Assembly (NCBI GenBank): GCA_001780285.1
Contig: MFGN01000006.1
Span: 1 to 63,241, forward strand
DNA length: 63,241 nucleotides
Reading direction: 5' to 3'
DNA from: Candidatus Falkowbacteria bacterium RIFOXYD12_FULL_34_57
GTDB taxonomy: Bacteria; Patescibacteriota; Patescibacteriia; Patescibacteriales; UBA12075
Part shown: positions 8,224 to 57,838 of the stretch, in pieces
How the letters are laid out: each line of letters begins with the position of its first letter
How positions within the stretch are numbered: the stretch's first letter is position 1
Translations under genes and position numbers: made by a program
The notes under the pieces: generated by a model
Databases searched by the model: none
Told to the model about the DNA's origin: nothing
Seen by the model: only the letters and a program-made list of their open reading frames with translations

Positions 8224-8297
8224 AATAATAATATTTAAAAAATTAACGATTTTAATACGACAATAAAAATCTTAAACATTTTTAATATTTTAAAATC

Positions 8298-9914: not shown

Positions 9915-9948
9915 AATTTTTTCTTACAAACTCATAAACCGTGGACGG

Positions 9949-11541: not shown

Positions 11542-11623
11542 ATTACTAGTAACGATTAACAATTAACCCCTATTATTGGACCGCAATTATTTGAGGCGGT
11601 AATGAGGAAAATAATTAACTAGT

Positions 11624-12883: not shown

Positions 12884-12930
12884 AGATAAAAAATTTAAAA
12901 AATGATAACACGCTTGAATGTTAACATAAA

Positions 12931-13482
12931 TTAAAATGCTATTATTTTTATAATATCGTCACTATTATATTGCCCATCTCCCACGCCATCGGGACCATAA
13001 GAACCGACAACAACCACATTGTGGCATCCTCCGCCCCCATTACACGGTTCATTGCTGGCATTAACACTGTAATCTGTATCAAAAAAATATTCATTTCCCC
13101 AAGAATCTAAAGGTACTTGCGCCATATATGGTCCAGACCAATTTGGAAAATTACCATCCGTTGCCTCAAGCCCTGCTCGAGGATCAGATAATCCATAAGC
13201 GCAGCCGTCGCTGCAAATTTCATTGCCGGCGGGACAACCTCCTGGTCGATCAGTACACACCACCTCAAAGGGCTGTAAACCGGGCCAATAACCCGTATCA
13301 TTCGCCATAACCCCCATGGCGCGAAAAATTGTATCCACCTCATGTTCGGCTTTAGCAATTTTTGATTTTGTTTGAGCTACCCTTACGCCAACTACGGCCA
13401 TCGTGGTTAAAAGTCCAATAATCGCAATAGTGACCAATAACTCAACCAAAGAGAAACCTTTCTGTAATTTTATAAATTTCAT
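12931..13482 (-). CDS. Type IV pilin-like / GspG-like pseudopilin
   Basis: The N-terminus MKFIKLQKGFSLVELLVTIAIIGLL has a prepilin peptidase site (KG|FSLVE) and a hydrophobic helix. The C-terminal part has DSWGNEYFFD...GSYGPDG..DG...SDDI, which resembles GspG/PulG. Confidence 0.8.
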   Translation of the reverse strand: MKFIKLQKGFSLVELLVTIAIIGLLTTMAVVGVRVAQTKSKIAKAEHEVDTIFRAMGVMANDTGYWPGLQPFEVVCTDRPGGCPAGNEICSDGCAYGLSDPRAGLEATDGNFPNWSGPYMAQVPLDSWGNEYFFDTDYSVNASNEPCNGGGGCHNVVVVGSYGPDGVGDGQYNSDDIIKIIAF

Positions 13483-13492
13483 AAGTTTTTTA

Positions 13493-14125
13493 CTATTTAT
13501 AATTAAAACTGCATTTATTATTAATGCATTTACAATTTAATCCAGCTGAGGGATCCCACAGAGAAGCATCACAAGTTTTTTTTAATTTTGAAATTATATT
13601 TTCATTGTTTTGATTTTGGTTGGCACAAAACATCTGGCAGCTATTGGTGGAAATATATTTACTACAATCAATATCCGTGTCACACCTAAAATCAAGCTTA
13701 TCGGTTGGTTCAATTTTTGGTAATTTTGATAAACCCAGAACACCGGGGCAATCGGCAAAATCACACTCCGGAGGAATACGATTCACGATAGAGCCATCTG
13801 TGCATACCCTCATATCCATACGACACTGATATTTTTCTTTAAAAACTTTCACAAAATCCAAAGAACTAGCCTGATCATCGGCATAATAAAAATAATAGCC
13901 TAAAGCGGCGCACACCACCGCAAAAAATATTACCACCAAGACTCCGGAGGTGGAATATATTTTATTAAAAAATTTTCCCTTAGCCCGAAGCTTTTCTATT
14001 CTTTTCTCAAAACTATCAACATCTTTTATGCCGGGTTCTTTTTGTAAAACTGAAACAATGGGCCCAGTAGCCTTGTTAATACTTTCTAAAATATCACCTT
14101 GTTTATGTTTTTTTTCTTTTAACAT
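13493..14125 (-). CDS. Single-pass membrane protein with Cys-rich ectodomain (hypothetical)
   Basis: 210 aa with one TM helix (GVLVVIFFAVVCAALGYYFYY) followed by 12 Cys. It is 10 nt upstream of the pseudopilin gene on the same strand. Confidence 0.6.
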   Translation of the reverse strand: MLKEKKHKQGDILESINKATGPIVSVLQKEPGIKDVDSFEKRIEKLRAKGKFFNKIYSTSGVLVVIFFAVVCAALGYYFYYADDQASSLDFVKVFKEKYQCRMDMRVCTDGSIVNRIPPECDFADCPGVLGLSKLPKIEPTDKLDFRCDTDIDCSKYISTNSCQMFCANQNQNNENIISKLKKTCDASLWDPSAGLNCKCINNKCSFNYK

Positions 14126-14236
14126 GTAAAATAAATCTTAAAACTAAAAATAATTTCTATCAATATTTTAAATTTTAGCTGTTATTCTTAGCTTTTCACT
14201 CTTAATTTTTAGTTTTTATAGAAATGTATAAAATAA

Positions 14237-15406
14237 TTATCTGGTTACTATTTTTCTAAGTCCCGGCATTTTTTTCTTTCCCAAGAAAGCCAGGCTCGCT
14301 CCTCCGCCGGTTGATGCCCAATCTACAGCGTCAATCATTTTGGTTTTTTGCAAAGCCTCAATGGTTTCTCCTCCACCCACCACCCCAAAAGCTTTTCCGC
14401 GCGATCTGCCGGCAATCACATTAGCCATCGCCATAGTGCCGTGGTGGAAACCATTTTCCTCAAATAATCCCATTGGCCCGTTCCAAATAATTGTATTAGC
14501 TTTTTTTATAATATCGCTAAAAAGCTTTATGGTCTTTGGGCCAATGTCATAAATATAATCTCCTTTGTTTATATTTATAAGATCTTTCGCTACCGGGTTC
14601 TTGGCGCCCTTAACAGCGCTGATTACCACATCTACGGGCAGGACAATTTTTTTGTTTTTAAACTTTTGAGCAAATTTCAAACTCTCTTTATCGGTCAACG
14701 ACTTTCCAATTTCAAAATCATGAATGCGAAAAAAATTATTAGCGAGCGCTCCTCCGACCAATATCTTGTCCGCTTTTCTGTAAAAAGCCTTAATTAAAGG
14801 AACTTTGGTTTTTATCTTATTTCCCCCAATTACTAATACAAAGGGTTTTTTAGCATCAAAAACCTTGCTTAAATTCAAAACCTCTTTTTCAAGCAAAAGA
14901 CCAGCAAAGGCTGGCAAGTATTTTTGAATAGCGGACAGTGATGCATGGGCTCTATGAGATACGCCAAAAGCATCATTTACATAAACATCTCCGAGCTTGG
15001 CTAAATTTTTGGCTAAATTTTTGCTATTTTTTTCCTCTCCCGGCTCAAATCTAATATTTTCAAATGCCACAATGTCGCCGTTTTTCATATAACTCGCAAC
15101 GCTACCGCCCTCAAAACCGGAAATATTTTTTATAATTTTTATATCCCTACACAACTCCTCCTCTAAAATATCTATTACCGGTCTAATTGATAAATCCTTC
15201 TTAAATTTTCCCTCGGGCCGGCCCAGGTGAGTAATTAAAATAATCTTACATTTTTTTTCAAGCAAAAATTCAATAGTGGGAAGCTGTCTTTTAATCTTGT
15301 AATCATTCAAGACTACCCCATTCTTGATTGGCACATTAAAATCAACTCTCAATACCACCCTTTTTCCCTCAATATTTTTAGCTTGTTTTATAGACTTTAC
15401 TTTCAT
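14237..15406 (-). CDS. pgk: Phosphoglycerate kinase
   Basis: 389 aa. Has RVDFNVP, ILITHLGRP, NDAFGVSHRAHAS, WNGPMGLFE and STGGGASL. Confidence 0.96.
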   Translation of the reverse strand: MKVKSIKQAKNIEGKRVVLRVDFNVPIKNGVVLNDYKIKRQLPTIEFLLEKKCKIILITHLGRPEGKFKKDLSIRPVIDILEEELCRDIKIIKNISGFEGGSVASYMKNGDIVAFENIRFEPGEEKNSKNLAKNLAKLGDVYVNDAFGVSHRAHASLSAIQKYLPAFAGLLLEKEVLNLSKVFDAKKPFVLVIGGNKIKTKVPLIKAFYRKADKILVGGALANNFFRIHDFEIGKSLTDKESLKFAQKFKNKKIVLPVDVVISAVKGAKNPVAKDLININKGDYIYDIGPKTIKLFSDIIKKANTIIWNGPMGLFEENGFHHGTMAMANVIAGRSRGKAFGVVGGGETIEALQKTKMIDAVDWASTGGGASLAFLGKKKMPGLRKIVTR

Positions 15407-15604
15407 AAAAATAACAAATATTTACCTTTATAATAAAAACATATTTTATACACATTTCCTATATATTATACCACATATAAACATCAAAAACAAAATCATT
15501 CTTTAAAAATCATTGACAAAAAATATAAACTATGTTAATTTTTGAAATATAATAAAAATAACATCGGCTCATTAACAAAATAATTTTAAAAAAGGGGGGA
15601 AATT

Positions 15605-17077
15605 ATGATTTTTGGGTTATTTGCAACATCTTTTATTTTTATTTTTTTTATGGGGTTTTTACTGGTAATTATGGGCCCTAATAATTTTTTTCAATTTTTG
15701 AGACAAATTCTTAAAGATAAAAAATGTATTGCTGTAATCATTCTTCTGTTCTTTTTTCTAACTCTTGGATTCAGGGCTGTAAAACTAAATGAGGAGGAAA
15801 AAGCAACACAACTCACCGTTCAAAAAACTGAAAAAACCATGATTAGTGATCCAAAACTGTTGACTTCCGCCACGGAAGAAAAAAAAATAGAACCCCCAAA
15901 GACCGATAAAATCGAGGGAGGGAAACCAATCGCATCAACTACAGAGACAAGTAATGGGGCGGTATCATTAATCGGCAAAAAAATTGCCGGCACCCATCCA
16001 TTAAAAACCTTATCCAATCATAATAATGTTGCTTTTTCCTATTTTCAAAACTCGGATGTTCCAAATTGTAGATACACCACCCAACACACCATAGTTGAGT
16101 TTTCCTGGCGAAAAGAAGGTGAAATTCATTATCTGCCCGTATCCAAATTTAAGATTATAGAAAAAAAAGACGGTCCAAGTGTTCCGGTAGCTAAATTCAG
16201 ATGGAAAGTCCGGGGAGAAGAGGGTGTTGATAAAGACATACCTAAAATAATGGAAGAAAATATTATTTATATAGAGATTACCGGACAATCTGGCTTTTGG
16301 CCTTTTGATCGTCAATACGCCGAAAACATTGAGGTGCTGAGCAGTAAAATCAGCCAAAAGTTAAAGGGGATGCGCACCCTAGAGCCTCTGAGGAACAGTT
16401 CAAACACAATTCTATCCAGCAACACATATTTCGATAGTTTTGGACGCGATAAAAACTTGATAAATGCTTATAGCAAGATACGATTTAATACTACTTTCGA
16501 AAACGGCATCACGCAGTTTTGTGTCATACCCTGCGGCAAACTAAAGGTTAAAATAGTAGACAATATCGCAACTCCGGTATTTAGGTCAAGGTGGGCGGTA
16601 CTAACCGGAGAAGGAAGCACCGAAAAACCTATTACTAAAATATTAGAAGAAAATATTATTTTCTTTGAAGTTATCTGTACCCGCGATCAATGGCCGTTTC
16701 GCTATATCCCAAACGGAAAGTATAAAAAATTAACCGGGGAGATCAATGTTTTACTTTCTCAAAATTATTATTTAGAACAAATAAACCCAAACCAAGAAAA
16801 TACGATTAATCCTCTCCAAAAATATTTTGACTCCGAAGAAGAAATGGTGAAATTTGTTCTAAAATTTGAAGAAAAAATAAAGTTTGAACTAAGGTTTCCG
16901 CTTAGTAAATTCCAGGTTGAATTCACAGAAGATAAGCATTCACCAATTATAGGATTTAATTTTAAAGAACACAAAGAAAACTGTACCATTAAAAAATCAC
17001 TTATAGAAAAAGATTGTTTTAAAAAGAATATGGATAGTATTAAAATAATCTGCAACAAAAAGGACTGGCCTTTCTAG
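15605..17077 (+). CDS. Membrane-anchored hypothetical protein with three internal repeats ending in WPF
   Basis: 490 aa. GGGGG at 15594-15598 precedes the ATG. Two N-terminal TM helices. Repeated blocks are KIMEENIIYIEITGQSGFWPFDRQY, KILEENIIFFEVICTRDQWPFRYIP and DSIKIICNKKDWPF*. A TTGACA-17-TAATTT promoter-like site lies at about 15519-15547. Confidence 0.7.
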   Translation: MIFGLFATSFIFIFFMGFLLVIMGPNNFFQFLRQILKDKKCIAVIILLFFFLTLGFRAVKLNEEEKATQLTVQKTEKTMISDPKLLTSATEEKKIEPPKTDKIEGGKPIASTTETSNGAVSLIGKKIAGTHPLKTLSNHNNVAFSYFQNSDVPNCRYTTQHTIVEFSWRKEGEIHYLPVSKFKIIEKKDGPSVPVAKFRWKVRGEEGVDKDIPKIMEENIIYIEITGQSGFWPFDRQYAENIEVLSSKISQKLKGMRTLEPLRNSSNTILSSNTYFDSFGRDKNLINAYSKIRFNTTFENGITQFCVIPCGKLKVKIVDNIATPVFRSRWAVLTGEGSTEKPITKILEENIIFFEVICTRDQWPFRYIPNGKYKKLTGEINVLLSQNYYLEQINPNQENTINPLQKYFDSEEEMVKFVLKFEEKIKFELRFPLSKFQVEFTEDKHSPIIGFNFKEHKENCTIKKSLIEKDCFKKNMDSIKIICNKKDWPF

Positions 17078-17093
17078 GTATATCAAAAACAAA

Positions 17094-17118
17094 AAACGGG
17101 AAAAATTCCCGTTTTTTT
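17094..17118 (+). terminator. Intrinsic terminator after 15605..17077
   Basis: aaaacgggaaaaattcccgttttttt. Confidence 0.8.
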
Positions 17119-17140
17119 ATTATAGCAAAATATAGATTTA

Positions 17141-17167
17141 AAAAGAGGTGTGTTTTTACACCTCTTT
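17141..17167 (-). terminator. Intrinsic terminator after rseP
   Basis: Minus strand: agaggtgtaaaaacacacctct followed by ttttt. Confidence 0.7.
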
Positions 17168-17176
17168 ATCTTAGTT

Positions 17177-18232
17177 TTAAAAAAAGAAATTCAGAAAATC
17201 ATTTCCAACCGTAAAAACCATCAAGGCAACCAATAACAATACTCCCGCCACATTCAAACACTTTTCAATGGTTTTATTTACCGGTCTGCTGATTACTCCC
17301 TCTATTGTGTAAATCAGCAAATGTCCGCCATCAAGAGCGGGAATAGGAAAAAGGTTAATAACCCCCAAACAAACACTAATAATAGCTATAAACCACAGAA
17401 ATGACTTAAGTCCATATTTGGCTGTTTCAGCAGATGCTTTTGCAATCATAATCGGTCCACCCAAGTTATCCCTAGCAGATAATTCTCCAGTAACCATTTT
17501 TTTAATGCCAAGGAGATTTAATTTACCAACTTCATATGTGTCTTTAATTCCGGATTGAACTGATGATATAATCCCTAAGCGAACTGTCTCAACTTTAAAA
17601 ACAACCCCCATAACCTTCATATCCATTTCTTTCCCAGTAATATTTTTACCTTTAACAATTTGTGGATTGATTCGCAAAATCAAACTTTCTTTATTCCTTT
17701 CTACTAAAACATCAATATCACCTTTGGCGCTATGCAGCTCTAATCTAATATCGTTAAAGGTGGAAATATTATTATCATTTATTTTTAAAATCCTATCTCC
17801 AATCTGCATGCCAACATCTTTTGCTGGACTATTTTCCGTAAATTCTACCACTATCGGATAAAAAACCTGTCTTTCAGAAGTCATATTGAGCCCAGAAAAT
17901 ATCACAATTGCCAATAAAAAATTAAATGTAACTCCCATAGCTACAATAATAAATTTTTTCCATAATTTCTGATAAACAAAAGACACGGCTATTTCTTCTT
18001 CGCTGCATATAAAGTTTGAGTCTTCTCCAAACATTTTTACATATCCGCCAAGCGGAACAAGAGAAAGACGGTACTCTGTTTCTCCAATTCTTTTCTTGAG
18101 TAATGCGGGACCAAAGCCAATCGAAAAAGCTTCTACTCTAACCCCAAATTTTTTAGCTGCTAAAAAGTGCCCCATTTCATGAACAAAAACCAAAACACCG
18201 ATAACAATAATAAAATAAAACATTGCGTCCAT
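17177..18232 (-). CDS. rseP: Site-2 (RIP) zinc metalloprotease, M50 family
   Basis: 351 aa. Has the HEMGH motif (VFVHEMGHFLAAKKFGV), a central PDZ-like segment and NLFPIPALDGGH. It is polytopic. Confidence 0.9.
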   Translation of the reverse strand: MDAMFYFIIVIGVLVFVHEMGHFLAAKKFGVRVEAFSIGFGPALLKKRIGETEYRLSLVPLGGYVKMFGEDSNFICSEEEIAVSFVYQKLWKKFIIVAMGVTFNFLLAIVIFSGLNMTSERQVFYPIVVEFTENSPAKDVGMQIGDRILKINDNNISTFNDIRLELHSAKGDIDVLVERNKESLILRINPQIVKGKNITGKEMDMKVMGVVFKVETVRLGIISSVQSGIKDTYEVGKLNLLGIKKMVTGELSARDNLGGPIMIAKASAETAKYGLKSFLWFIAIISVCLGVINLFPIPALDGGHLLIYTIEGVISRPVNKTIEKCLNVAGVLLLVALMVFTVGNDFLNFFF

Positions 18233-18441
18233 TTCAAATCTCCTTGTTTTTATTAATCTTTATTGTAAATGTACTTGTTTTAATTTTAGATATTATCACA
18301 AAAAACAATATATGTCAAACCAAAAAATTATTTTTGTGCTATAATATGAATTGGGACTTATACGTTTAAAAACTTTATATTTACCACAAACAACCCCTTG
18401 CTCCCCCTAAAAATTTTTAAATAACATATTTAATATTAAAT

Positions 18442-19026
18442 ATGAAGAATACAAAACAAATCATCCTCGCTTCCAGCTCTCCGAGGCGCAGACAACTTTT
18501 AACTCAGGTTGGCCTAAAATTCAAAGTTGCAAAAAGCAATTATGAAGAAGATATGTCTCAAAAGATGAAACCAGCACAAATGGTAAAAACATTTTCTCTT
18601 GGCAAGGCGCGTGATGTAGCCCAAAGATATAAAAATGCCATTATTGTCGGTTCTGATACTATTGTCGTTTATAATAATAAAAAACTAGGAAAACCCAAAT
18701 CCCCCGCCGAAGCTAAAAAGATGCTAAAAATGCTCTCCAATAAAGCCCATACTGTCTTGACCGGGATTACTGTCATCAATTCTAAAACCGGTAAAACTAT
18801 TACCGATTATGAAGCCACTAAAGTATATTTTAAAAAATTAACTCCTTCTGAGATTAATAACTATGTAAAATCGGGTGAACCATTAGACAAAGCCGGTTCA
18901 TACGGAATTCAGGAACTAGGCGCTACTATTATCAAAAAAATAGACGGGGATTATTTTACAGTAGTCGGATTGCCATTAGTTAAATTGACTAAGATATTAA
19001 AAAAATTTGGAATAAAAGTGTTGTAA
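18442..19026 (+). CDS. maf: Maf-like nucleoside triphosphate pyrophosphatase
   Basis: 194 aa. Has IILASSSPRRRQLL, GSDTIV and KAGSYGIQ. An extended -10 (tgcTATAAT) lies at about 18337-18345. Confidence 0.9.
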   Translation: MKNTKQIILASSSPRRRQLLTQVGLKFKVAKSNYEEDMSQKMKPAQMVKTFSLGKARDVAQRYKNAIIVGSDTIVVYNNKKLGKPKSPAEAKKMLKMLSNKAHTVLTGITVINSKTGKTITDYEATKVYFKKLTPSEINNYVKSGEPLDKAGSYGIQELGATIIKKIDGDYFTVVGLPLVKLTKILKKFGIKVL

Positions 19027-19072
19027 ATATTCTCTATTTTTTCGGAATATCATTCTTTCTAAAATAAATTTT

Positions 19073-20845
19073 TTATAATTTGCTATTAATCTTTTCCAAT
19101 ATTTCTTTGATAAACTCATCTTTCCCAATCTCCCGTATATCCTCCGCTCCCCTATCCCGGACATTCAATTTTTCTGATTCCATTTCCCTGTCTCCAATTA
19201 CCAGCATATATGGCACTTTTTCTGCAACTGCCTTGCGTATTTTATTTCCCACTGTTTCATCCGAAAAATCAACCTCCACTCTAATGCCGGCCCCCATTAA
19301 TTCTTGTGCTTGTTTAGTGCAATATTCAACATGTTTAGCGCTCACTGCGACTAATTTTACTTGCACAGGTGAAAGCCAAACAGGAAAAGCTCCGGCATAG
19401 TGTTCAATTAAGTAAGCAAGGGTTCTTTCATAACAGCCAAGAGAGGTGCGGTGAATAACCACCGGCTCTGCCTCTTTTCCGTTACTATCTGTATATTTAA
19501 GGCCAAATCTGCCGGACATGGCAAAGTCAACCTGTACCGTAATAATCGTGTCCTCCTTGCCATTTACATTTTTGTACTGAACATCCAGCTTTGGTCCATA
19601 AAAAGCAGCTTCTCCGTCAGCTTCTGTGTATTCCACCCCCGCTTTATCTAATATTTTTTTCATGGATTCCTGGGTTTTATTCCATGCTTCGGGATTGTTT
19701 ACATATTTTCCTTTTTTATTTTCTCTATCCCACTTAGAAAAACGGTAAGTATAGTTATTTAATCCAAGAGTTTTTAATATATATTCAATCAAATTCAAAA
19801 CTCCTAAAATTTCTTCTTCCACTTGATCTGCCCGGCATATCAAATGCCCCTCAGAGATAGTAAACTGCCTGACACGAATCAGCCCAGACAGCTCGCCGGA
19901 TAGCTCATTTCTAAAAAGTGTAGAAGTTTCAGAATATCTAATCGGCAATTCCTTGTAGGATCTTGGCTTAGCTTGAAAAATACAAAACTGATGAGGGCAG
20001 GTCATGGGACGCAGGGCATAAGGACTTTCGTCCGCCTCTGTAATAAACATATCATCCTTGTAGTGCGCCCAATGTCCGCTTATTTCATAAAGCTGTTTTG
20101 ACCCAAGACTGGAAGTATAAGTTTTTTGATATCCTCTTTTTCTTTCTTCATCTTCCACCCAGCGCTCTAAAATTTGTCTAATAATGGCTCCCTTTGGTGC
20201 AAAAAGAGGTAATCCCTTTCCAACTCTTTCATCAATGTAAAACAAATCTAACTCCCTACCCAATTTTCGATGATCTCTTTTTTCCGCCTCTGTCTGTACT
20301 GTTAAATAATATTCTAGTTTTTCTTTAGTTTCAAAAGCAACTCCATAAATTCTGGTTAACATTTTATTTTTTTCATCCCCTCGCCAATAAGCTCCGGCTA
20401 TTTTTGTTAGTTTAAAAACATCCAATTTTATTTTACCCGTAGAACCCAAATGCTTACCGATGCACAGATCACCAAAATTACCGCTCCAATAATAAGAAAC
20501 GTTCTTTTTTCCATCTTTCTTTAAATCTTCCAAAATATCTATTTTATAATTTGCTTTTCTCTCTTTTTCAAATTCTATTGCTTTCTCAATTCCCAACTCT
20601 CGTTTTTCAAATTCTAAATTCTGCTTGATTATATGTTTCATTTTTTTCTCAATTTTTTTCAAGTCATCTTCTCCGATTTTTACATCCCCAAAATCAAAAT
20701 CATAATAAAATCCGTTTTCAATTGCCGGACCAATAGCAAATTTAACATCCGGCCACAACTCTTGAACAGCGGCCGCTAAAACATGGGCGCATGAATGCCT
20801 CATAATTTCTAGTTCTTCATTTAATTTTTCTTCTTTAGTTAACAT
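19073..20845 (-). CDS. thrS: Threonine--tRNA ligase lacking the N-terminal TGS domain
   Basis: 590 aa. The editing-domain motif HSCAHVLAAA is already at residue 17. DLCIGKHL, class II catalytic core and a C-terminal anticodon-binding domain are present. Confidence 0.93.
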   Translation of the reverse strand: MLTKEEKLNEELEIMRHSCAHVLAAAVQELWPDVKFAIGPAIENGFYYDFDFGDVKIGEDDLKKIEKKMKHIIKQNLEFEKRELGIEKAIEFEKERKANYKIDILEDLKKDGKKNVSYYWSGNFGDLCIGKHLGSTGKIKLDVFKLTKIAGAYWRGDEKNKMLTRIYGVAFETKEKLEYYLTVQTEAEKRDHRKLGRELDLFYIDERVGKGLPLFAPKGAIIRQILERWVEDEERKRGYQKTYTSSLGSKQLYEISGHWAHYKDDMFITEADESPYALRPMTCPHQFCIFQAKPRSYKELPIRYSETSTLFRNELSGELSGLIRVRQFTISEGHLICRADQVEEEILGVLNLIEYILKTLGLNNYTYRFSKWDRENKKGKYVNNPEAWNKTQESMKKILDKAGVEYTEADGEAAFYGPKLDVQYKNVNGKEDTIITVQVDFAMSGRFGLKYTDSNGKEAEPVVIHRTSLGCYERTLAYLIEHYAGAFPVWLSPVQVKLVAVSAKHVEYCTKQAQELMGAGIRVEVDFSDETVGNKIRKAVAEKVPYMLVIGDREMESEKLNVRDRGAEDIREIGKDEFIKEILEKINSKL

Positions 20846-31367: not shown

Positions 31368-31423
31368 ATTTTAAAACACTAAACCATTAAGGATTATTAA
31401 AAATTGGAAATTAAAAACAAGAA

Positions 31424-31612
31424 AAGCCTGAAAGGCTTTTTGAAGTCTCCGCCTGAGGCGGACACAGCGCCTTTCCATGCCCGCCTCAGGCGGGGGCGTG
31501 GTGAATAATGGAATAATAATAAAAAAATAATCCCCCTTCGGGAGATCCCCCACAAGATGAAGCCATATAACAGATATGGGGTTAGGGGGAAAATTCCTAT
31601 ACGATTAAAAAA
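31424..31612. repeat. Intergenic GC-hairpin repeat element, copy A
   Basis: aaaagcctgaaaggctttttgaagtctccgcctgaggcggacacagcgcctttccatgcccgcctcaggcgggggcgtggtgaataatggaat...aatcccccttcgggagatcccccacaagatgaagccatataacagatatggggttagggggaaaattcctatacgat. Almost identical to 53768..53987. Confidence 0.9.
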
Positions 31613-31690
31613 TTATCTAAAGTGTGGTATAATATATATAATTAGAAACCAAAAACCTAGAATCGCTTTGCAATATTTTTTTAAAAAATT

Positions 31691-32263
31691 ATGCCAACCA
31701 CAGACAAACAACTTATCACCGAAAAACAAGCTTTAGATATTTTTTTCAATCTTTTGAACAGCTCGTATTCTGAACTTTTTTATGATTTTAACAAACACCT
31801 AGATCAGTTTCACGACCTTGATATTCAAAATGAAAAAATTGCTAAAATGTCTTTTTTACTAATGCTGGCCGTATTGGAAATAGAGTGTACCCGCAATATC
31901 CATTCTGAGCAGCTTGCTAATAAAATGTATCATTATTTCTTGGAAAATATTCTAAAAACGCTTGAAGATAAATTTAATGAAATTCAGGCGGAGAGATACC
32001 GGGATATTATTCATAATGAGCTGGCGGACTACAAGCAAAAATATCACGAATCGCTGGAGCACAATAAACGAAACCCTTGCTATAGTCTTCTGGAAAATGT
32101 CATTGATAAACATCTACATATCTGTTTTGAAAACCACACCAGTAAAATCTACCTTGAAAACACCAACACCATAAATCCTATCATTACCAAGCTATCAAGT
32201 GATTTTCTAACTGATTCTATTTATATTTCTAAAAAAATATTTACAGAATATGAGGTGGGTTAA
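31691..32263 (+). CDS. Hypothetical protein (190 aa, helical)
   Basis: ORF with an extended -10 (tgtggTATAAT, about 31634-31644) upstream. No recognisable motifs. Confidence 0.55.
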   Translation: MPTTDKQLITEKQALDIFFNLLNSSYSELFYDFNKHLDQFHDLDIQNEKIAKMSFLLMLAVLEIECTRNIHSEQLANKMYHYFLENILKTLEDKFNEIQAERYRDIIHNELADYKQKYHESLEHNKRNPCYSLLENVIDKHLHICFENHTSKIYLENTNTINPIITKLSSDFLTDSIYISKKIFTEYEVG

Positions 32264-41595: not shown

Positions 41596-42231
41596 TTAAA
41601 CCGCTTCTTCCTGCGCTTCCATTTCATTTTTGATAATCATCGTAGTAATAATCGTAGACCTTTCCTGTTCATTTAACTTGGAGGTAATATATTTAAAGGT
41701 TTCCGCCATATCCGGAATAAAAACATACTCTAGGGCATTTACTCTTCTTCTGGTCTTCTCAATTTCAGCTGCCATCAATTTTGCGGAATGCTCTTTTTCC
41801 GCCAAATTCACCAAATCCTTTAAGGTATCGGAAAATATTTTTAAAGAAGTGTCTAGTTCTCCACTGGTAGTAGCAAGGCTATAAGAAAGAAAATCTCCCT
41901 CTTCCTTGTAAGTAAATCGAGGCACATTAACACTCATTACATTTTTAGTATCCGCTTCTAGTCTTATTTTTTTAGACGGCACCGCAAAAGCTTCTTCAAT
42001 TTCTTCCTTGTTCATATCGGCTCCGGCAAATAAAAAAGCTTTGAATCCCAAGGCTAGCTTGTCCTCTACTGATTCTCGTAAGGTTTTTACTTCCCTGATA
42101 ATCGCCATAAACTCTTTCATGAGGCCATCGCGCTTCTCTTTTAGTAATTTATGCCCACGCTTCGCAGTAACAAGCTTCTTTTTCAACTTAATCAACTCCA
42201 TTCTGGTGGGATTTATTTTTAATATAGCCAT
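41596..42231 (-). CDS. ntpD: V/A-type ATPase subunit D
   Basis: 211 aa. Starts MAILKINPTRMELIKLKKKL..A.RGHKLLKEKRD. Coiled-coil central stalk. Last gene of the operon. Confidence 0.9.
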   Translation of the reverse strand: MAILKINPTRMELIKLKKKLVTAKRGHKLLKEKRDGLMKEFMAIIREVKTLRESVEDKLALGFKAFLFAGADMNKEEIEEAFAVPSKKIRLEADTKNVMSVNVPRFTYKEEGDFLSYSLATTSGELDTSLKIFSDTLKDLVNLAEKEHSAKLMAAEIEKTRRRVNALEYVFIPDMAETFKYITSKLNEQERSTIITTMIIKNEMEAQEEAV

Positions 42232-42289
42232 ATTTTATTCAGGCAATAGCAGTAAGCAACGGATAATATTTATTGTTGCTTACTACTTG

Positions 42290-43669
42290 TTACTTGCTTT
42301 TTGGTAAATATTTCTCAATTTGTTTTTCTTTTAATCTCTTTAATTCTTCTCTTGGCAAGATGGTTAAAAGTTTCCATGCTCTGTCTAATGTGTCTTTTTC
42401 TAATTCACGATTTTCAGCAATTCCTTGTCTAATATATGTATTTTCAAATTCATCTGCAAAGTGCGAATATTTTTTGTCAGCATCAGAAAGAGCCGCTTCA
42501 CCCAAAATGACAGCGAGTTCTTTAGCCTCTTTTCCACGAGCATAGGCAGAAAAAAGCTGATTGGCTAAATCTCCATGATCTTCTCTGGTTTTTTTACCCC
42601 AAACCTTTTGCGCCAAGCGAGAAAGTGATGGCAGCACATCTACCGGCGGATAAATACCCCTTCTGTGTAACTCCCTAGAAAGGATAATCTGTCCTTCAGT
42701 AATATAACCTGTCAAATCAGGAATTGGATGAGTTTTATCATCTTCAGGCATAGTAAGTACGGGAATTTGAGTAATAGAACCCTTCTTGCCCTTAATGCGA
42801 CCGGCTCTTTCATAAAGGGTGGAAAGGTCGGTATACAGATATCCTGGGTAACCACGCCTTCCTGGAATTTCTTTTCTGGCAGCTGATACTTCGCGCAAAG
42901 CCTCACAATAGTTGGTTAAATCAGTTAATATCACCAAAACATGCATATCCTTTTCAAATGCCAAATACTCGGCTGTGGTCAGAGCCATTCTTGGCAAAGT
43001 AATTCTTTCTACCACCGGATCATTAGCTAAATTCATATACAAAACAGATCTTTCAATTGCTCCTGTTTCTTTAAATTGATTAATAAAATATTCCGCTTCT
43101 TCAAATGTAATACCCATCGCACCAAAGACTACTGCAAACTCTGAATCTGAATCATCTTTTACTCTTGCCTGTCTTGCGATTTGAGCGGCTACTTCCGAGT
43201 GGGGCAAACCAGCCCCAGAAAAAATAGGCAACTTTTGTCCGCGTACCAAAATATTCATTCCATCTATAGAGGAAATTCCGGTCTGAATAAAGTCATTGGG
43301 GAAATCTCTGGAGTAAGGATTAATTGGCGCACCATTAATATCAACTTCTTTTTCAGCAATAATATCCGGACCCCCATCTTTTACTCTACCAGCACCGGTA
43401 AAAATACGACCAAGCATGTCCGGAGATACGGCAATAGTCATGGTTTTACCTAAAAATTTTGCCTTACTTTTTTTCAAATTAATTCCACGGCTCTCTTCAA
43501 ACATTTGCACTACCGCTTTTTCCTCATCCACCTCCAAAACTCTCCCTAAACGGATTTCTCCATTTGGTAATTCTATCTCAACTATTTCTTCGTATTTTAC
43601 ATCCCTAACCTTATCTACAATCATGAGTGGTCCCGCAACTTCTTTGATTGTTTTATATTCTTTTTGCAT
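42290..43669 (-). CDS. ntpB: V/A-type ATPase subunit B
   Basis: 459 aa. Has [39 protein letters not shown] and [12 protein letters not shown]. Confidence 0.95.
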
Positions 43670-43692
43670 AAATTTATTTTAATATATAATTA

Positions 43693-45435
43693 TTAGCCGT
43701 AAAGCTTTCTAATTTCACTTTTTACATTATCAATCAGTTCTTCATATAAACTATTATCCTTGAGCCATTTACATTTAATAACCTCTGTTTTTATTGGCAG
43801 GTTAACCAAATCATTTAGCTTAATTTCCCTATCCAGAGCCCTTTTTGCTTCTTTGTGAAAAGTTATTATGGACCTTAATATGTAATATTGTTTTTTCAGT
43901 GATGTATAGGTATCTTCATCGTCAAAAGCATTCTGGTGTAAAAAATCTTCACGCAAAGATTTTGTAGTATTCAAAACTAATTGTTCTCTGGCAGACAAAG
44001 CGTCAACTCCCACTAAACGAACAATTTCTTCAAGCCTTGCTTCTTCCTGAAGTAGGTTCATGGCTTCATTTCTAATTTCCGGCCAATCTTCTCCGGCCTC
44101 TCTGCGCATATAATCCAAAACATCATTTTCATATAAAGAGTAACTGTTAAGCCAATTTATTGCCGGAAAGTGGCGTTTAAATGCTAACTTGTCATCAAGT
44201 CCCCAAAAAACCTTTGCTACCCGCAAAGTATTTTGTGTTACCGGTTCAGATAAATCCCCACCCGGAGGCGAAACAGCTCCCACTACAGTAAGCGCCCCTT
44301 CTCGACTCTCCGATCCCAAACACTTTACTTTTCCTGCTCTTTCATAGAATGCGGCCGTCTTAGAGCCCAAATAAGCAGGATATCCCTCTTCCCCGGGCAT
44401 TTCTCCTAGGCGTCCCGATATTTCCCTTAAGGCCTCTGCCCATCTAGATGTGGAATCTGCCATCAAGGCCACTCTGTATCCCATGTCACGAAAATATTCA
44501 GCAATTGTTATTCCGGTATAAATAGATGCTTCGCGGGCTGCCACTGGCATATTAGAAGTATTGGCGATTAAAACAGTTCTTTCCATTAATGGCTTTCCCG
44601 TTTTTGGGTCTTCAAGTTCTGGAAACTCTAAAAGCACATCGGTCATTTCATTTCCACGCTCTCCGCATCCAATAAAAATAACTATCTCGGTGTCAGACCA
44701 TTTAGCAAGTTGGTGCTGCACCACTGTCTTACCAGCCCCAAATGGTCCGGGTACACACGCTGTACCACCCTGCACCACAGGAAAAAAAGTATCAATCACT
44801 CTTTGTCCGGTAATCATTGGCTCTCTTGGAGCTAATTTATTTTTTGTTGGTCTTGGGGCTCTAATTGGCCAAATTTGTAACATACAAATCTTTTTTCCAC
44901 CAACTTCAGCCACAATCTCTTCGATAGTAAATTCTCCGGCCTTAATATTATTAATTGTACCGCTAATTCCTGGTGGCACCATTATTTTATGCACAACTAA
45001 ACTGGTCTCCTGAACTGTTCCAATAATATCACCCTCCTCTACCTTATCCCCATTTTTTACAATCGGTTCAAATTTCCATTTTTTTGCGCGATCAAGACCA
45101 GGAACACTGATTCCTCTGGTAATAAACGGACCAGCAGCTTCTTCTAAAAGCCTTAAGGGCCTTTGAATTCCATCATAAAAATTAGTAAGAAGCCCTGGGC
45201 CAAGTTCTACTGAAAGTGAATGACCCTCCAAATAAACAGGTTCTCCTGGTCCAATACCAGAAGTATCTTCATATACCTGTATAGAGGCCTTATCTCCCCT
45301 CATTTCAATAATTTCTCCAATAAGTTTATGTTCGCTTACCTTTACCACATCATAAATATTAGCATCTTCCATTCCTTTTGCTACAATCAACGGACCGGAG
45401 ACTTTAACAATTGTTCCATGTTTTATATTTGTCAT
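43693..45435 (-). CDS. ntpA: V/A-type ATPase catalytic subunit A
   Basis: 580 aa. Walker A is [11 protein letters not shown]. Has the non-homologous insert typical of A subunits, plus [16 protein letters not shown]. Confidence 0.96.
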
Positions 45436-45585
45436 ATTTTTATTAAAATTTTTAATTTTTATAATTTTTAATTTTTAAATAAAATATTAAATTATAATTT
45501 TTAAACCATTCCATAAAACAACTTATTTTGTTTTTAAAAAATTAAAACATTATTTATAAAATTAAAAATTACAAAATTATAAAAA

Positions 45586-45918
45586 TTATTTAAGAATATC
45601 CGAACCAACTGCCTGCTCTACTATCTTTTTCAAATTCTTAAGCGCCACACCAGAGCTCCCCTTCGGTGATGGTACTGAAACGATAGCTGGCAGGGCGCGT
45701 GAGTAATATTCATCTAAAACTTTTTCTAATTTTTCTGCCCAATCTTCTGTAATAAAAACAATGGCATAATTTCCGCTATCCAAAATCTTTACAGCTTGTT
45801 CCTTGGCATTATTATCATTTAACCCAAAAACATCAATCCCCAGACTGCTAAATCCAAGAATGGCATTGTGATTTCCAATTATTGCAATTTTATACTCTTT
45901 CATATGAAATTTAGTCAT
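45586..45918 (-). CDS. V/A-type ATPase subunit F
   Basis: 110 aa (possibly starting at MKEYKIAIIG, 45903). Has IAIIGNHNAILGFSSLGIDVF and occupies the expected position between C and A. Confidence 0.85.
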   Translation of the reverse strand: MTKFHMKEYKIAIIGNHNAILGFSSLGIDVFGLNDNNAKEQAVKILDSGNYAIVFITEDWAEKLEKVLDEYYSRALPAIVSVPSPKGSSGVALKNLKKIVEQAVGSDILK

Positions 45919-45987
45919 CCGCTTAAGGCGGACCAGTTCTTTATTGTTTTTATTGTAAATTAAAGAGTCAAAAATCTATAAAATCAA

Positions 45988-46980
45988 TTAATATAAATTT
46001 CGCACCCTTTCTTTTATTTCTTCTCCTTTAATATTATTAATTTTTCCGGCCATAATAATCTGGATGTTGTGAATAGCGTTTACTTTTGCTAAAAAATAAG
46101 CCACCAAAACAAAAGGACCCTCTTTCTTAATGTGCGACTCTTGCAGCAATGCCACTATATGGTTATCCATCCCTTTTTCAAAACGCCAAAAATCACCTGA
46201 TTCTAAAAAAATATTTAAACTATTCTTTATTTGTAAATTAATAAATAAATCACTGATATCGTTTACCATTTCATGTAGACCCTTTTTGTATGCTCTGAGT
46301 AAATTGTTTTCATTACCGCCGACAATCGTATCTTTGCGCACATCATCCACGGGGCGATCTAATAATTTACTTCGAAGAACCAGCTTAATATTAGCAATAT
46401 CGATTTTTATTTTTATAAAGTCTATTAAATCTCTGTCTTTCATCTTAATAGCCTTATTTAAAATAAATTCAAAGTATTTTTTATCAAAATAAGCATCAAT
46501 TATTTGTGGTGTATTATTTTTTTCAAAAATTTCACAAGCATCTTTTATGATATCGCCATATTCGGGTGGTATATCGCTTGACGCCCCCTTGTTCAAAATA
46601 ACATTATAAAATTTTTCTTTTCCAATCATCCCCAGAGAGCTTAAATCTTCAATCTTTATATCTTTCCCGGCATACTTTGTCTTGAAAATAATTTTCAAAT
46701 TATTAAAATCATAAGGAGCTAACATTAAATCCAACACCCGCTTGTCTGGTGCGATAGATGACACAAAATCTCTCACCTGCCCCAAGTCATGAGCTAAAAC
46801 TTCTTCGTATTGCTCTGGATTGTCCACATCTAAAAGTTCATCAGCATAACTGAGGTCGTTAAAAATTTTAAAGCTCTTGTCGGCACTAGGAGCATCTATC
46901 ATTCTCTCCATATCATTATAATCAAATAATTTTTTTTCTACCTCCCTAATGGCTCCGGTTGGAAATAAGTATGAATTCAT
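45988..46980 (-). CDS. ntpC: V/A-type ATPase subunit C (d-like)
   Basis: The track ORF extends to 47034 and overlaps subunit E. The ATG at 46980 ([19 protein letters not shown]) avoids the overlap. All-helical, about 330 aa, in the expected position. Confidence 0.8.
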
Positions 46981-47005
46981 AAAATTAATAAAAATTTTGA
47001 ATTTA

Positions 47006-47575
47006 TTATTCAAAAAGACGCTTTGCAATTTCAACGCTAAATTCTTTTTTACTGGTGTTTATATAATTTTCTATGGTGTTATTAACTTCAACAATTTTAG
47101 AGGACAAAATAAAACCATCTTCCCCTTTTGGTAAATTTTTATCAGAAATTTTGTATGACAATCCCGCCTTTTGTATAGCTTTTTTTATCAAATCTTTTTT
47201 AGATGAGGAGGTAATAATTTCTGCATCTTCTACCATGTCAGTACTCTGAAGCATTTTAACCATCAAATTTATGAATTCTTCATCGTTCAACTTCAACAAT
47301 TTTTCTTTTGCAGTTTCAAAAACCTGATCAATAAGTTCTTGTTTAACGGTTAGAAGAATATTCTTCTTTAACATTCTTTCCTTAAACTCTGTTTGTTCTT
47401 GTATTTTCAATGCTCTTTCTTTACTTCTATCTTTTATAATTTGAATAGCGTTCACGATTTGCTGGTTTTTTTCTGCTAAAATTTTGTCCAATTCTTTTTG
47501 GCCATCACCTATAATATTCTCGGCTTTTTTATTAGCATCTGATAATATTTTGTTTGTAATATCGGTTAAAGACAT
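47006..47575 (-). CDS. ntpE: V/A-type ATPase subunit E
   Basis: 189 aa. N-terminal coiled coil ([13 protein letters not shown]...) plus a globular C-terminus. Confidence 0.85.
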
Positions 47576-47632
47576 AATATTGATTTATTGCGATTCTAAA
47601 TTACGAATTTCGAAATTTATTAAGATATTTAA

Positions 47633-48103
47633 CTATCCCACATTAATTCCGTTTAAAATTAATAAGCTTGTAAGCAATCCGAACACAGCATAAGTTTCTA
47701 CCATAGCGGCATAAATTACACCCTTGCCGACTTGGTCTGGTCTTTTAGCGAGTAAATAACAACCACTGGCACAAACTTTTCCCTGAAAAATTCCAGAAAA
47801 AAATCCAGTAAAGGCTATTGGTGTGCAAGCAAAAAATATTTGCCATCCAACATTTATATCAATCATTATAACCGATCCCAATAAACCAACTTTGGTCATA
47901 ACTAAAATTGCGGTTAAAAGACCATAGATTCCTTGGGTGCCAGGTAAGGCCTGCAGCAACAAAGTTTTACCAAATTTTTCAGGGTCTTCAGAAATTACTC
48001 CCGCTGCAGCTTGACCCGCAGTTCCAATACCATGTGCCGACCCAATACCGGACAATATAACGGCAAGAGCGGCACCTGAAATAGCAATTGCTAATCCTAA
48101 CAT
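47633..48103 (-). CDS. ntpK: V/A-type ATPase proteolipid subunit K (4-TM, duplicated hairpin)
   Basis: 156 aa. Has LSGIGSAHGIGTAG, LLLQALPGTQGIYG, FFSGIFQGKV and YAAMVETYAVFGL. Very close in pattern to Enterococcus hirae NtpK. Confidence 0.93.
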   Translation of the reverse strand: MLGLAIAISGAALAVILSGIGSAHGIGTAGQAAAGVISEDPEKFGKTLLLQALPGTQGIYGLLTAILVMTKVGLLGSVIMIDINVGWQIFFACTPIAFTGFFSGIFQGKVCASGCYLLAKRPDQVGKGVIYAAMVETYAVFGLLTSLLILNGINVG

Positions 48104-48154
48104 AGTTTTTTTATTAATGTGGAAATATATTTTTTATAATTCCAAATTAATCAA

Positions 48155-50143
48155 TTATTTTTTAATTAAATTAATATATTTATTTTCCCTAATAAAGGGG
48201 TGAAAAATTCGTCCCCCTCCTTCAAAAAATGTTTTAAAAAATTCAACATATTGCAAACGACCAGAGTGCACAAAAGCACCAACTAAACTAATTACCAAAT
48301 TCATAAGATGCCCACCAATCAAGACTAAAACCATGAGCAGCCAACCAATATAAGGAATCTTGTCATAGACCATTGCACCTACAATATTAACAACCATCCC
48401 AATAATACCAGTAGCAAGCCCCAGAGCTAATAAACGAGAATAGGACAAAATATCCGACACATATCCAGAAATCCCAAAATAAAGTTGGGTTAACCCCCCA
48501 AAAATTTTCATTATGGGGTTTTTGCTTTTTCCCTGAGTTAATACAACTAAAATAATTGCTGAAATTACGGCATATAAAGCTGCCTGATTCACACTTGGTG
48601 GCAACACTCCCTTTATGGTTGCTATCCAAAAACCAATAGTTAATAAAAAATAAATCCATACCCCAGAAGTCAAAAGTCCATCTTTTACTTCTCCTTGTTT
48701 TATCTTACAACTCAGGCTAATAAAATTTCCAAATACTAAATGAATATAACCCAACAATATTGAAAGTGCCAATATGGTTAGGGGATCTTTTACTGGATCT
48801 ACTTGCCTGATTGCAATCAGTGGTTTAGCGAGCCAAGCCAAGCTTTCTGGTAGATCATCCAAAACCACGCCGAACCAACCGCCAGTTAACCCCCCCGCTA
48901 TAAATGTTACTATACCGCCAAAAAATAATACTTGTAGTAATTTTTTTGTACCTCCGGTAAATTTAAAAAATTTCAAAAATATAAATGAACAAATCGTTAA
49001 AATAATTCCGTATCCCGCATCAGTTAAACAAAGACCAAAAAAAATGATAAAAAAACCAGCCAAAAATGGTGTTGGATCCACTTCGCCATACCTGGGGAAA
49101 CCATAAATACTTGTAACAAACTCAAATGGTGTCACAAGTTTGGAATTTTTCATAATAATCGGCACCGGTTCATCTTCTTTTATTTTTAGTTCTATGATAT
49201 CAAAAAAATCAGTAATTTTTTGTATTCCTTTCTTAAGTTCCGATAATTCAGTGTTTTTTATCCAACCCAAAACAGAAAAGGTGTTTTCCGTAAACTCAAA
49301 ATTTTCTTGAATATTTTCTTGTTTTAATTGCCAGGTTAAAAAATCAAAAATAATTTGTAAATTTTCAAAATGTTTATTGGCAATTTCCTGCACCTCGCTT
49401 TTTATTTTCCCTATTTCCGTTTCAACACCCTCTATTTCTTTATCTATTTCATCAATTCTCTCCCTAACAGAAATATTTCCCAGGGGCGATTCAATTAACT
49501 TAAAACTATTATTATTTAAAAAATTAAAAAATCTTCTTTCGTATTCTTTAATAAAAATAATATAAACAAAAGAACAAGAATCATTTTGCTCAACACGGGT
49601 GATGTTAATTTTTGTAAATTTTTTATTTATCTTATTGCAAAACTCATCATATTTATCATTAGCAATGCTTCCCAAAACCACTTTTACATTTTTTGTCTCT
49701 ATATCATTTTCGGTCAATGGTAAATTTTTCCATGGTAATAATTTTTTCTTTTCCTCGTTTAATTTTATAATTAAACTCTTTAAGGTATTAAATCCTTGCC
49801 CACAATCCTCAATTTTTTCGCAAACTTCAAAATATTTAAAATCATTTTGAAGCTTAAAAATTTCATCTAAATAGATATTTTTCTTCTCTTGGTTAATTTT
49901 TTCAGTTAAGGTTCGCGTATCCTGATGATATGAAGACAAAAAGTCAAGAGCATAAGTAATTTTGGATAATTTATATTCAGTATTAGTTGCTTCATCATTC
50001 CGTCTCTCCCGCACCAAAATTGCTGAAGCATCTTTGGCGGGCAATATTTCCATAAATCCTCTATCAAATAAAAACTCAAGGATTTCTTTCTTTGAATCAT
50101 TATGGGCAATAATGTTAATTTTTTTAATTTTAGCTACGGACAT
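48155..50143 (-). CDS. ntpI: V/A-type ATPase subunit I (a-like)
   Basis: 662 aa. Soluble N-terminal half plus a C-terminal half of about 7-8 TM helices, with YSRLLALGLATG (conserved Arg). Confidence 0.9.
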   Translation of the reverse strand: MSVAKIKKINIIAHNDSKKEILEFLFDRGFMEILPAKDASAILVRERRNDEATNTEYKLSKITYALDFLSSYHQDTRTLTEKINQEKKNIYLDEIFKLQNDFKYFEVCEKIEDCGQGFNTLKSLIIKLNEEKKKLLPWKNLPLTENDIETKNVKVVLGSIANDKYDEFCNKINKKFTKINITRVEQNDSCSFVYIIFIKEYERRFFNFLNNNSFKLIESPLGNISVRERIDEIDKEIEGVETEIGKIKSEVQEIANKHFENLQIIFDFLTWQLKQENIQENFEFTENTFSVLGWIKNTELSELKKGIQKITDFFDIIELKIKEDEPVPIIMKNSKLVTPFEFVTSIYGFPRYGEVDPTPFLAGFFIIFFGLCLTDAGYGIILTICSFIFLKFFKFTGGTKKLLQVLFFGGIVTFIAGGLTGGWFGVVLDDLPESLAWLAKPLIAIRQVDPVKDPLTILALSILLGYIHLVFGNFISLSCKIKQGEVKDGLLTSGVWIYFLLTIGFWIATIKGVLPPSVNQAALYAVISAIILVVLTQGKSKNPIMKIFGGLTQLYFGISGYVSDILSYSRLLALGLATGIIGMVVNIVGAMVYDKIPYIGWLLMVLVLIGGHLMNLVISLVGAFVHSGRLQYVEFFKTFFEGGGRIFHPFIRENKYINLIKK

Positions 50144-53649: not shown

Positions 53650-53767
53650 CTCAATTTACTCCTTAATTATGTATAAAGTAAATTTCATTGTTAAATAGCC
53701 GCTTTATCTGTAAATATATAAACATATTTTTTTCGAAAAATCAAGAAGAATCAAATATCTTTTAACC

Positions 53768-53987
53768 AAAAAAGCCTGAAAGGCTTTTTGAAGTCTCCGC
53801 CCAAGGCGGACACAGCGCCTTTCCATGGCCGCCCCAGGCGGGGGCGTGGTGAATAATGGAATATCTAATATTAAACACTTTTACCCTTTATAAATAGTAA
53901 AAAATAATCCCCCTTCGGGAGATCCCCCACAAGATGAAGCCATATAACAGATATGGGATTAGGGGGAAAATTCCTATACGATAAAAA
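53768..53987. repeat. Intergenic GC-hairpin repeat element, copy B
   Basis: Near-identical to copy A, with loop substitutions in both GC hairpins and an extra AT-rich block of about 40 nt (53863-53905) that is shared with copy C. Confidence 0.9.
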
Positions 53988-54029
53988 AGAGCCAAACCAA
54001 TGACTCTTTTTATAATATTTATAAAATTA

Positions 54030-57803: not shown

Positions 57804-57827
57804 GAGGCATCTGTTTTTGATGCCTCT
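57803..57827. terminator. Hairpin terminator after ATP-grasp 2 / element C
   Basis: agaggcatc-tgttttt-gatgcctct with T/A runs on both sides. Confidence 0.7.
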
Positions 57828-57838
57828 TTTATCTTTTT

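Follow-up and report, generated by a model that had tools for sequence, protein, structure and literature searches.

A modular repeat between genes

We analysed a 63,241-nt stretch of Candidatus Falkowbacteria bacterium RIFOXYD12_FULL_34_57 (contig MFGN01000006.1, positions 1–63,241; hereafter the window) for an intergenic, hairpin-rich repeat, one copy of which (copy A) lies at 31418–31612 on the + strand. An initial annotation had described three copies, with copy A between plus-strand genes and the other two between minus-strand genes, and had proposed either a structured RNA family or an element resembling miniature inverted-repeat transposable elements (MITEs) or repetitive extragenic palindromes (REPs). 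Using blastn and an nhmmer profile, we located all three window copies, A, B (53766–53988) and C (57839–57965), on the + strand; the orientations of the flanking genes are as described, and every hairpin that had been listed can be read from the sequence at its place. The analysis below shows that copies of a defined unit have spread to tens of intergenic sites that are unrelated to one another, that one end lies against host terminators, and that the unit then decays by deletion.

The limits of copy A were set at 31418 and 31612 because other contigs aligned on it diverge at 31417/31418 and 31611/31612; the nhmmer match covers 31417–31613. Copy A is a short form, without a 29-nt spacer piece, of the general architecture CAA(G), hairpin 1, module 1, AT-rich spacer, module 2, and tail with A-run. 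The CAAG tetranucleotide (31418–31421, + strand; CTTG on the − strand) stands at or just outside the left end and may be target-derived. Hairpin 1 (31422–31440), AAAAGCC-TGAAA-GGCTTTT, or AAAAGCC TGAAA GGCTTTTT in the architecture consensus, is almost invariant across copies. It has the A-run/stem/T-run form of the genome's own bidirectional terminators and scores as terminator-like on the − strand. An alternative 7-nt pairing, GAAAGGC/GCCTTTC, competes with it; about one such pair is expected by chance.

Module 1 consists of two GC palindromes. Module 1a (GTCTCCGCC-TGA-GGCGGACAC, 31445–31465), read from the sequence and also returned as an inverted repeat in a scan of copy B, contains the inner hairpin TCCGCC-TGA-GGCGGA at 31448–31462 and is polymorphic across copies at loop positions 31454 and 31455. 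Module 1b (CCATGCCCGCC-TCA-GGCGGGGGCGTGG, 31475–31501), likewise read from the sequence, contains CCCGCC-TCA-GGCGGG at 31480–31494, within TTCCAT (31473–31478) and ATGGAA (31508–31513), and is polymorphic at 31480 and, in the loop, at 31486. The suggestion that copies differ in their hairpin loops thus stands for module 1 (31454, 31455 and 31486). The 13-nt core of 1b is the reverse complement of that of 1a (CCGCC-TCA-GGCGG vs CCGCC-TGA-GGCGG), and the two join into one 17-bp hairpin in the minimum-energy fold. Modules 1a and 1b thereby form an inverted pair like that of REPINs.

Module 2 (31531–31590, + strand) is a 60-nt foldback in which TCCCCC (31531–31536) and GGGGGA (31585–31590) enclose CCATAT-AACAG-ATATGG. 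It is the deepest and most abundant part of the repeat, at about twice the depth of the rest, and behaves as a discrete insertion/deletion unit: it is absent from copy C, and at a further locus (L011, 8386–8445) a related strain from a 2025 sediment run lacks exactly these 60 nt, seen as an exact skip in run X8. Module 2 could be a foldback unit of its own, nested in the repeat, or a hairpin that slippage removes readily. The tail (31591–31612, + strand) has the form AAATTCCTATACGAT(T) followed by A6, also written CCTATACGAT plus A-run; it is kept in all 12 copies that we read and adjoins host terminators in copies other than A. A 198-nt stretch spanning these parts has a more stable fold than any of its shuffles, whichever strand is taken (z = −4.0 for + and −4.7 for −). 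Terminator-like hairpins, too, occur on both strands of the element.

Copy B is the full-length form, with the 29-nt spacer piece. It had been called almost identical to copy A, but carries 29 extra nucleotides between its modules. That the sequence is repeated is far beyond chance: a 32-mer and a 40-mer of copy A are both found unchanged in copy B, with no match in 100 shuffles. Its AT-rich spacer (53862–53907, + strand) leads into module 2 (53908–53967, + strand) and holds a promoter-like site, TTTACC-17-AATAAT (53880–53908), pointing into that module. Copy C is a decayed deletion derivative: its hairpin 1 carries mutations, its module 1 is collapsed between the pair of CCGCC motifs, and the 60 nt of module 2 are gone; spacer and tail are retained.

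The repeat is present in tens of copies per genome

The initial count of three copies was far too low. In run X1, sequence words flanking copy A had a depth of ~38 and words within the repeat 400–2900, with 66 contig pieces on the repeat; at L011 in the same run the flanks stood at 36 with 0 differences and the repeat at 940–2260, and in run X6 the depths at L011 were 225–267 and about 5300–19900, respectively. Because the repeat is 20–80 times deeper than its flanks, and because 66–84 contig pieces align to it in the source runs, it is present in tens of copies per genome, roughly 20–80. Since the flank depth of L011 equals that of the window, with 0 differences, L011 is another contig of the window's genome. 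Three independent assemblies contain copy A in the same sequence and away from contig ends, so that it is not an assembly artefact, which the initial annotation had named as a possible refutation.

Further copies were sought by an exact-pattern scan of metagenome contigs, which yielded nine loci and, with the window, 12 distinct copies that were read: A, B, C, L005, L006, L007a, L007b, L008a, L008b, L009, L011 and L013. Nucleotide likeness among these copies and the window ends at the repeat, and nothing else is held in common. The copies are 103–223 nt long and 84–97% identical across unrelated loci. A 22-nt exact match to the module 2 loop at L010 (5431–5452), in a coding region of an unrelated contig of 43% G+C, was dismissed as chance. 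Exact-pattern scans gave zero matches in viral contigs and zero in a species-representative genome collection that does not include the source metagenome-assembled genome (MAG).

Variation among the copies is largely a matter of deletion. Internal deletions, mostly between short direct repeats, occur in L006, L007b, L008b, L005, L009 and C, all of which retain both ends, and L007a is without its left end. The module 1b segment is deleted in L006, L007b and C, and is rearranged or inverted in L008a (L008 8889–9096), where the module 1 segment GGCGGACACAGCGCC is reverse-complemented, amounting to an inversion inside the palindrome pair. One contig carries a tandem-duplication joint of the repeat. 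The + orientation shared by the window copies does not hold as a rule: locus L007 carries two copies in opposite orientations. Eight of the 12 copies lie on the C-rich strand.

The tail lies against host terminators

The feature that is constant across copies, and that the initial annotation had not seen, is a terminator hairpin beside the tail end. Over 14 junctions (the 12 copies and two contig loose ends), the tail directly adjoins a locus-specific intrinsic terminator at 11. In L013, L011, L006, L008b, L007a, L007b, L005 and L009, the tail A-run is followed at once by a perfect hairpin that is specific to the locus and in most cases leads into a T-run; the hairpin at the tail of copy B is weaker, and the contig loose ends supply the two further junctions. 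In copy B, an inverted-repeat scan identified the terminator as AAAAGAGCCA-N6-TGACTCTTTT (53985–54012), directly against the tail and serving the convergent gene 54030–55145. Right flanks fold at ≤ −5 kcal/mol with the hairpin starting at flank nucleotides 1–3 in 8 of the 12 copies, compared with 1 of the 12 left flanks; among intergenic 32-mers, 15% fold at ≤ −5 kcal/mol with a hairpin at any position. Eight of the 12 tails point at the 3′ end of a convergent gene. This association with terminators is unusually strict for an interspersed intergenic repeat. The reciprocal scan for terminators followed by CTTG but free of the repeat found 0 among 70 terminator-like hairpins and carries no weight.

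Read on the − strand, the order is host hairpin and T-run, then ATCGTATAGG...element...GGCTTTT, then CTTG. Group IIC introns are known to insert in one orientation directly after intrinsic terminator motifs that are unrelated in sequence (PMC1702495), and the repeat resembles them in its position just downstream of a terminator and in its fixed orientation (11 of 14 junctions, − strand). It could on these grounds be the relic of a retro-element, either the remnant of a group IIC intron, since on the − strand it begins right after a hairpin and T-run as the group IIC rule requires (PMC1702495), or the product of target-primed reverse transcription of an A-tailed RNA at T-runs, with its + strand end A-run merging with the target A-run and L007a being 5′-truncated. 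However, neither strand matches the group II ribozyme model even at E ≤ 10, the Intron_gpII and group-II-D1D4 models give no match to copies A and B at permissive thresholds, and a reading of the sequence finds no GUGYG 5′ end, no domain V and no reverse transcriptase open reading frame (ORF). In contrast to group IIC introns, the repeat has no ribozyme, reverse transcriptase or Rfam match and is about a tenth of their size; most of its derivatives keep both ends rather than being 5′-truncated. Moreover, we know of no bacterial enzyme for A-tail priming. A retro-element origin is therefore very improbable.

The same junctions, together with the pattern of deletion, could also be explained without transposition. 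The repeat might be a host-domesticated sequence of the REP, BIME or SPRITE kind that has no transposition of its own, is spread by recombination or template switching at hairpin-stalled forks via A/T-run microhomology, and is kept because its hairpins strengthen termination or make mRNA 3′ ends more stable. Both junctions lie at the base of A-run/hairpin structures, internal deletions run between short direct repeats, stems are conserved while loops vary, terminator-like hairpins are found on both strands, and the tail so often faces a convergent 3′ end, all of which would suit such a role. However, an identity of 84–97% among tens of copies at unrelated loci implies active copying of a unit with fixed ends, and decayed copies such as C show no upkeep by selection; we regard domestication without transposition as rather improbable.

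The left end varies and the termini are unlike

The opposite end has a looser signature. In 11 copies, the four nucleotides before the hairpin 1 A-run are CAAG in six, ACAA in two, and CGAG, CCAA and TATA in one each; on the − strand these read CTTG (six), TTGT (two), CTCG, TTGG and TATA, with T in second position in 10 of 11. By our own count on the alignment, these four positions are ~5 times more variable per base than the adjoining 19-nt hairpin.

The two ends share no terminal inverted repeats, a scan of copy B and its flanks giving internal hairpins only. Duplication of the target site at the copy boundaries, which the initial annotation had suggested looking for, was not found in any consistent, fixed-length form: across the 11 copies, the best flanking direct repeats measure 2–8 nt at varying offsets. 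Two candidates, the 8-nt TTTTTCAA around copy C and TAAAAA around copy A, have inconsistent offsets and were discarded as chance.

These results bear on the proposed MITE- or REP-like nature of the repeat. A high copy number, sharp limits, mosaic structure and intergenic position uphold the general comparison, while a classical MITE is excluded because there are neither terminal inverted repeats nor a target-site duplication. MITEs are defined by these two features and can supply promoter or terminator elements. The repeat is like classical MITEs such as Correia and RUP in being small, non-coding, multi-copy and intergenic, but unlike them at its termini.

RNA and coding potential

The initial annotation could not match the repeat to any RNA family, and comparison of the window with Rfam covariance models gave none either: at the gathering score the whole window yields two tRNAs only, and permissive searches return nothing meaningful around copy A to E = 10 and none around copy B to E = 1. 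Covariation, which had also been proposed as a check, is not seen in the copy alignment: not one pair has both of its bases altered, and copies this much alike give the test no power. A C-G to U-A change in L008b counts as a paired change only in a shifted register.

Features of the spacer and module 2 nevertheless allow for a portable small RNA (sRNA) cassette, compatible with mobility, in which a promoter TTTACY-17-AATAAT in the AT-rich spacer would drive a + strand RNA of ~85–110 nt comprising module 2 and the tail and ending at the host terminator. The promoter-like site stands just upstream of module 2, deletion copy L005 begins exactly at its −35 hexamer, and in most copies the + strand has a hairpin with T-run after the tail. 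In the + strand consensus fold of module 2, 98% of cells remain paired; one-sided stem changes give G·U about 4–9 times on the + strand vs 1–2 on the − strand, and a GGGAG/UUCCU helix exists on the + strand only. However, the site matches 9 of 12 consensus positions in AT-rich DNA and is weak evidence because ~1.6 such matches are expected by chance in the region. Copies A and L009 are without the −35 region and C is without module 2; from the same bases, the − strand forms a terminator-like hairpin that is specific to it. No Rfam family matches, no pair is changed on both sides, and no RNA run contains the repeat sequence. A family of independently transcribed small structured RNAs is thus possible but unlikely as the main reading.

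A small-protein gene can be set aside with greater assurance. Copies A and B share the ORF start MKPYNRYG(V/I)RGKIPIR in module 2, preceded by GGGAGA, so that the initial claim of no conserved ORF is inexact for this pair; the frame is not kept in the other copies. The ATG and GGGAG motif are present in all copies with module 2, and one substitution is synonymous. However, at least six substitutions are non-synonymous, L007a is frameshifted and the stop falls at 15 to 59 codons. A peptide search with a concatenated six-frame query, meant to find further copies through their spurious ORFs, gave no match, though it also missed a 60-aa ORF annotated here by NCBI. On the strength of the frameshift and the mostly non-synonymous changes, we rejected this highly improbable reading. 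Nothing was found in support of a tRNA- or SRP-derived short interspersed element, a ribozyme, a retron or a CRISPR array.

Host genome and gene context

The 190-aa protein encoded downstream of copy A is also encoded in MAG GCA_001778135.1 and in groundwater assemblies from ENA, JGI and Logan, and the host of the repeat is a groundwater bacterium of the Patescibacteria (Candidate Phyla Radiation, CPR). CPR genomes are small (~1 Mb) and densely packed, and their mobile DNA has received little study. The best homologues of the window's M20 peptidase are annotated as Patescibacteria, Paceibacterota or Parcubacteria and are just 54–56% identical, so that public data appear to hold no close relative.

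The window has a G+C content of 35% and a GC skew that is negative on the + strand throughout (−0.12 to −0.25). It encodes parA/parB at 28.4–30.4 kb, yet no origin or terminus skew switch occurs within 1–63241. By eye, its genes are ordinary chromosomal ones (ParAB, DnaE, ThrRS, GroEL, a V-type ATPase operon and glycolytic enzymes), and the genes flanking the copies are ordinary housekeeping genes. The operon at 41596–50143 reads by eye as V/A-type ATPase subunits, one of which (vATP-synt_AC39) is confirmed by Pfam. Tandem paralogues of ~537 aa at 8298–9914 and 9949–11562 have N-termini that resemble cofactor-independent phosphoglycerate mutase by eye, and adjoin genes that read as enolase and PGK. 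Two secreted proteins were noted: a cysteine-rich giant of 1865 aa (2626–8223) with DUF1554, MopE-like and SprB-like stretches, and a 371-aa protein with a Kazal protease-inhibitor domain, encoded by the gene at 54030–55145 beside copy B.

Copy C lies between two tandem ATP-grasp paralogues (56407–59151), and its tail (57958–57965) overlaps the stop codon (57961–57963, − strand) of the ATP-grasp gene 57961–59151; it is therefore in the 3′ untranslated region (UTR) of one paralogue. At 31605–31633, the copy A tail GATTAAAAAA gives a −35-like TTAAAA 17 nt upstream of an extended −10 (TG-n-TATAAT), and this consensus match suggests that insertion of copy A may have made a hybrid promoter for the gene 31691–32263.

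A distant Patescibacteria relative (L014) carries an unrelated intergenic repeat of its own, about 55–90 nt long and clustered around a tyrosine-integrase gene, with copies at 1513–1695, 1841–1904, 2852–3134, 6810–6873 and 8439–8515. Small repeat families may be common in Patescibacteria.

Relation to known repeats and mobile elements

The repeat is a new lineage-specific family within the known class of bacterial interspersed intergenic repeats. In kind, by analogy, it seems to work like the REP/REPIN/BIME, BOX and SPRITE repeats (PMC3184786, PMC3337134, PMC3116915). REPs and REPINs are short GC palindromes in inverted pairs that number in the tens to hundreds outside genes, are confined to particular lineages and pass down vertically (PMC3337134, PMC3116915). 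The repeat shares with them, and with BIMEs, the inverted GC palindrome pair of module 1, tens of copies that lie outside genes and often just after them, a mosaic build that includes linker motifs, and a lack of terminal inverted repeats. It differs from REPs and REPINs in its 130–220-nt unit, its extra non-palindromic modules and fixed tail, and the unique terminator that each copy adjoins. REPs carry a GTAG-type 5′ tetranucleotide, which is absent here. REP, REPIN and BIME sequences are mobilised by RAYT, an HUH transposase like those of IS200/IS605; unlike in those systems, no RAYT (Y1 HUH) gene occurs in the window or in ~75 kb of other contigs. Among the pneumococcal repeats, BOX elements are likewise modular, non-autonomous and intergenic with stable folds, but BOX and SPRITE have unrelated sequences and come from another host phylum, and BOX has complementary terminal modules. 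To our knowledge, neither BOX nor SPRITE has been reported to adjoin a host terminator by one fixed end.

By the same kind of analogy, the end structure resembles that of IS91-type elements, as the choice of site resembles that of group IIC introns. IS91-family elements have two different ends, no inverted repeats, no duplication and subterminal palindromes, and target 5′-CTTG/GTTC (also CTCG) next to oriIS (PMC13181058). The repeat, too, has unlike ends, no inverted repeats, no target duplication and subterminal palindromes at both ends, and shows CTTG (6 of 11), CTCG (1 of 11) and a second-position T (10 of 11) on the same strand and side, although this tetranucleotide may be part of the element and not of the target. 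In contrast to IS91 and ISCR, it never shows GTTC at its ends, has no transposase gene and is ~0.2 kb in size. Hairpin-adjacent targeting has, as far as we know, not been described for IS91.

A proposed mobile repeat that lands at terminators

Taken together, we hold it to be slightly more probable than its negation that copy A is a member of a lineage-specific, high-copy, non-coding, non-autonomous interspersed repeat that is mobile and lands at terminators. In this account, a new copy would form when single-stranded DNA is inserted at a hairpin in a strand-specific manner; the enzyme responsible would be of the HUH type (IS91-, IS200/IS605- or RAYT-like), acting in trans and encoded elsewhere in the genome. 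A transposition step of this hairpin-recognising, single-strand HUH type is a tentative part of the account, and we place it well short of even. The landing site would be the host terminator, hairpin and T-run, which we propose is hit because it mimics the element's own terminal hairpin and T-run. Whether the repeat is a terminator-homing element in the full sense, with an HUH-type transposase taking any host intrinsic terminator for the origin-like end of the element, is doubtful.

A copy placed in this way would lie between a terminator and the next promoter and carry terminator-like hairpins on both strands; because of this position and these hairpins, we propose, it would be nearly neutral, insulated from transcription and tolerable even where the genome is compact. 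Transcripts of the copies are probably confined to 3′-UTR or read-through RNA, although a short + strand RNA that stops at the host terminator may come from some of them. Under the terminator-homing reading, the repeat may also double as a portable cassette for an sRNA or a terminator.

Several observations weigh against terminator-directed mobility. Mobility and the exact insertion point are inferred because there is no empty site: the nearest M20-peptidase loci (54–56% protein identity), which are without the element, are not syntenic. Neither the 63-kb window nor ~75 kb of related loci contains a transposase of any kind. Junctions A, C and L008a are without an adjacent hairpin. The A-run and CAAG could, on sequence, be derived from the element or from the target, both of which fit; the genome's native terminators have the form A-run/stem/loop/stem/T-run, and because they themselves start with an A-run, the A-run at the junction may belong to the target. 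The variant CAA-AAAAGCC, common to three copies, might just as well have arisen by mutation inside the element in one subfamily. The orientation bias relative to GC skew (8 of 12) is confounded with gene direction. Finally, blastn with the repeat found no match in plasmids and phages (72,556 plasmids, many of them IS91/ISCR-bearing), and hence no sequence similarity to the carriers of the elements whose ends it resembles.

Implications

The repeat has practical consequences for the study of its host. At tens of copies and roughly 1% of the genome, it fragments short-read assemblies, and many contigs in the source runs end inside it; as it marks terminators, it also helps to define transcription units. 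If insertion is not directed by terminators, the repeat is one more lineage-specific family of the REP/BIME kind. If the terminator-homing reading is true, the repeat would be the first mobile element other than group IIC introns for which terminators in general serve as landing pads, and the CPR would have its first non-autonomous family of the IS91-like kind. Confirmation of terminator-directed insertion would provide a second, DNA-based example of structure-guided terminator targeting and would point to an unrecognised transposase in this lineage.

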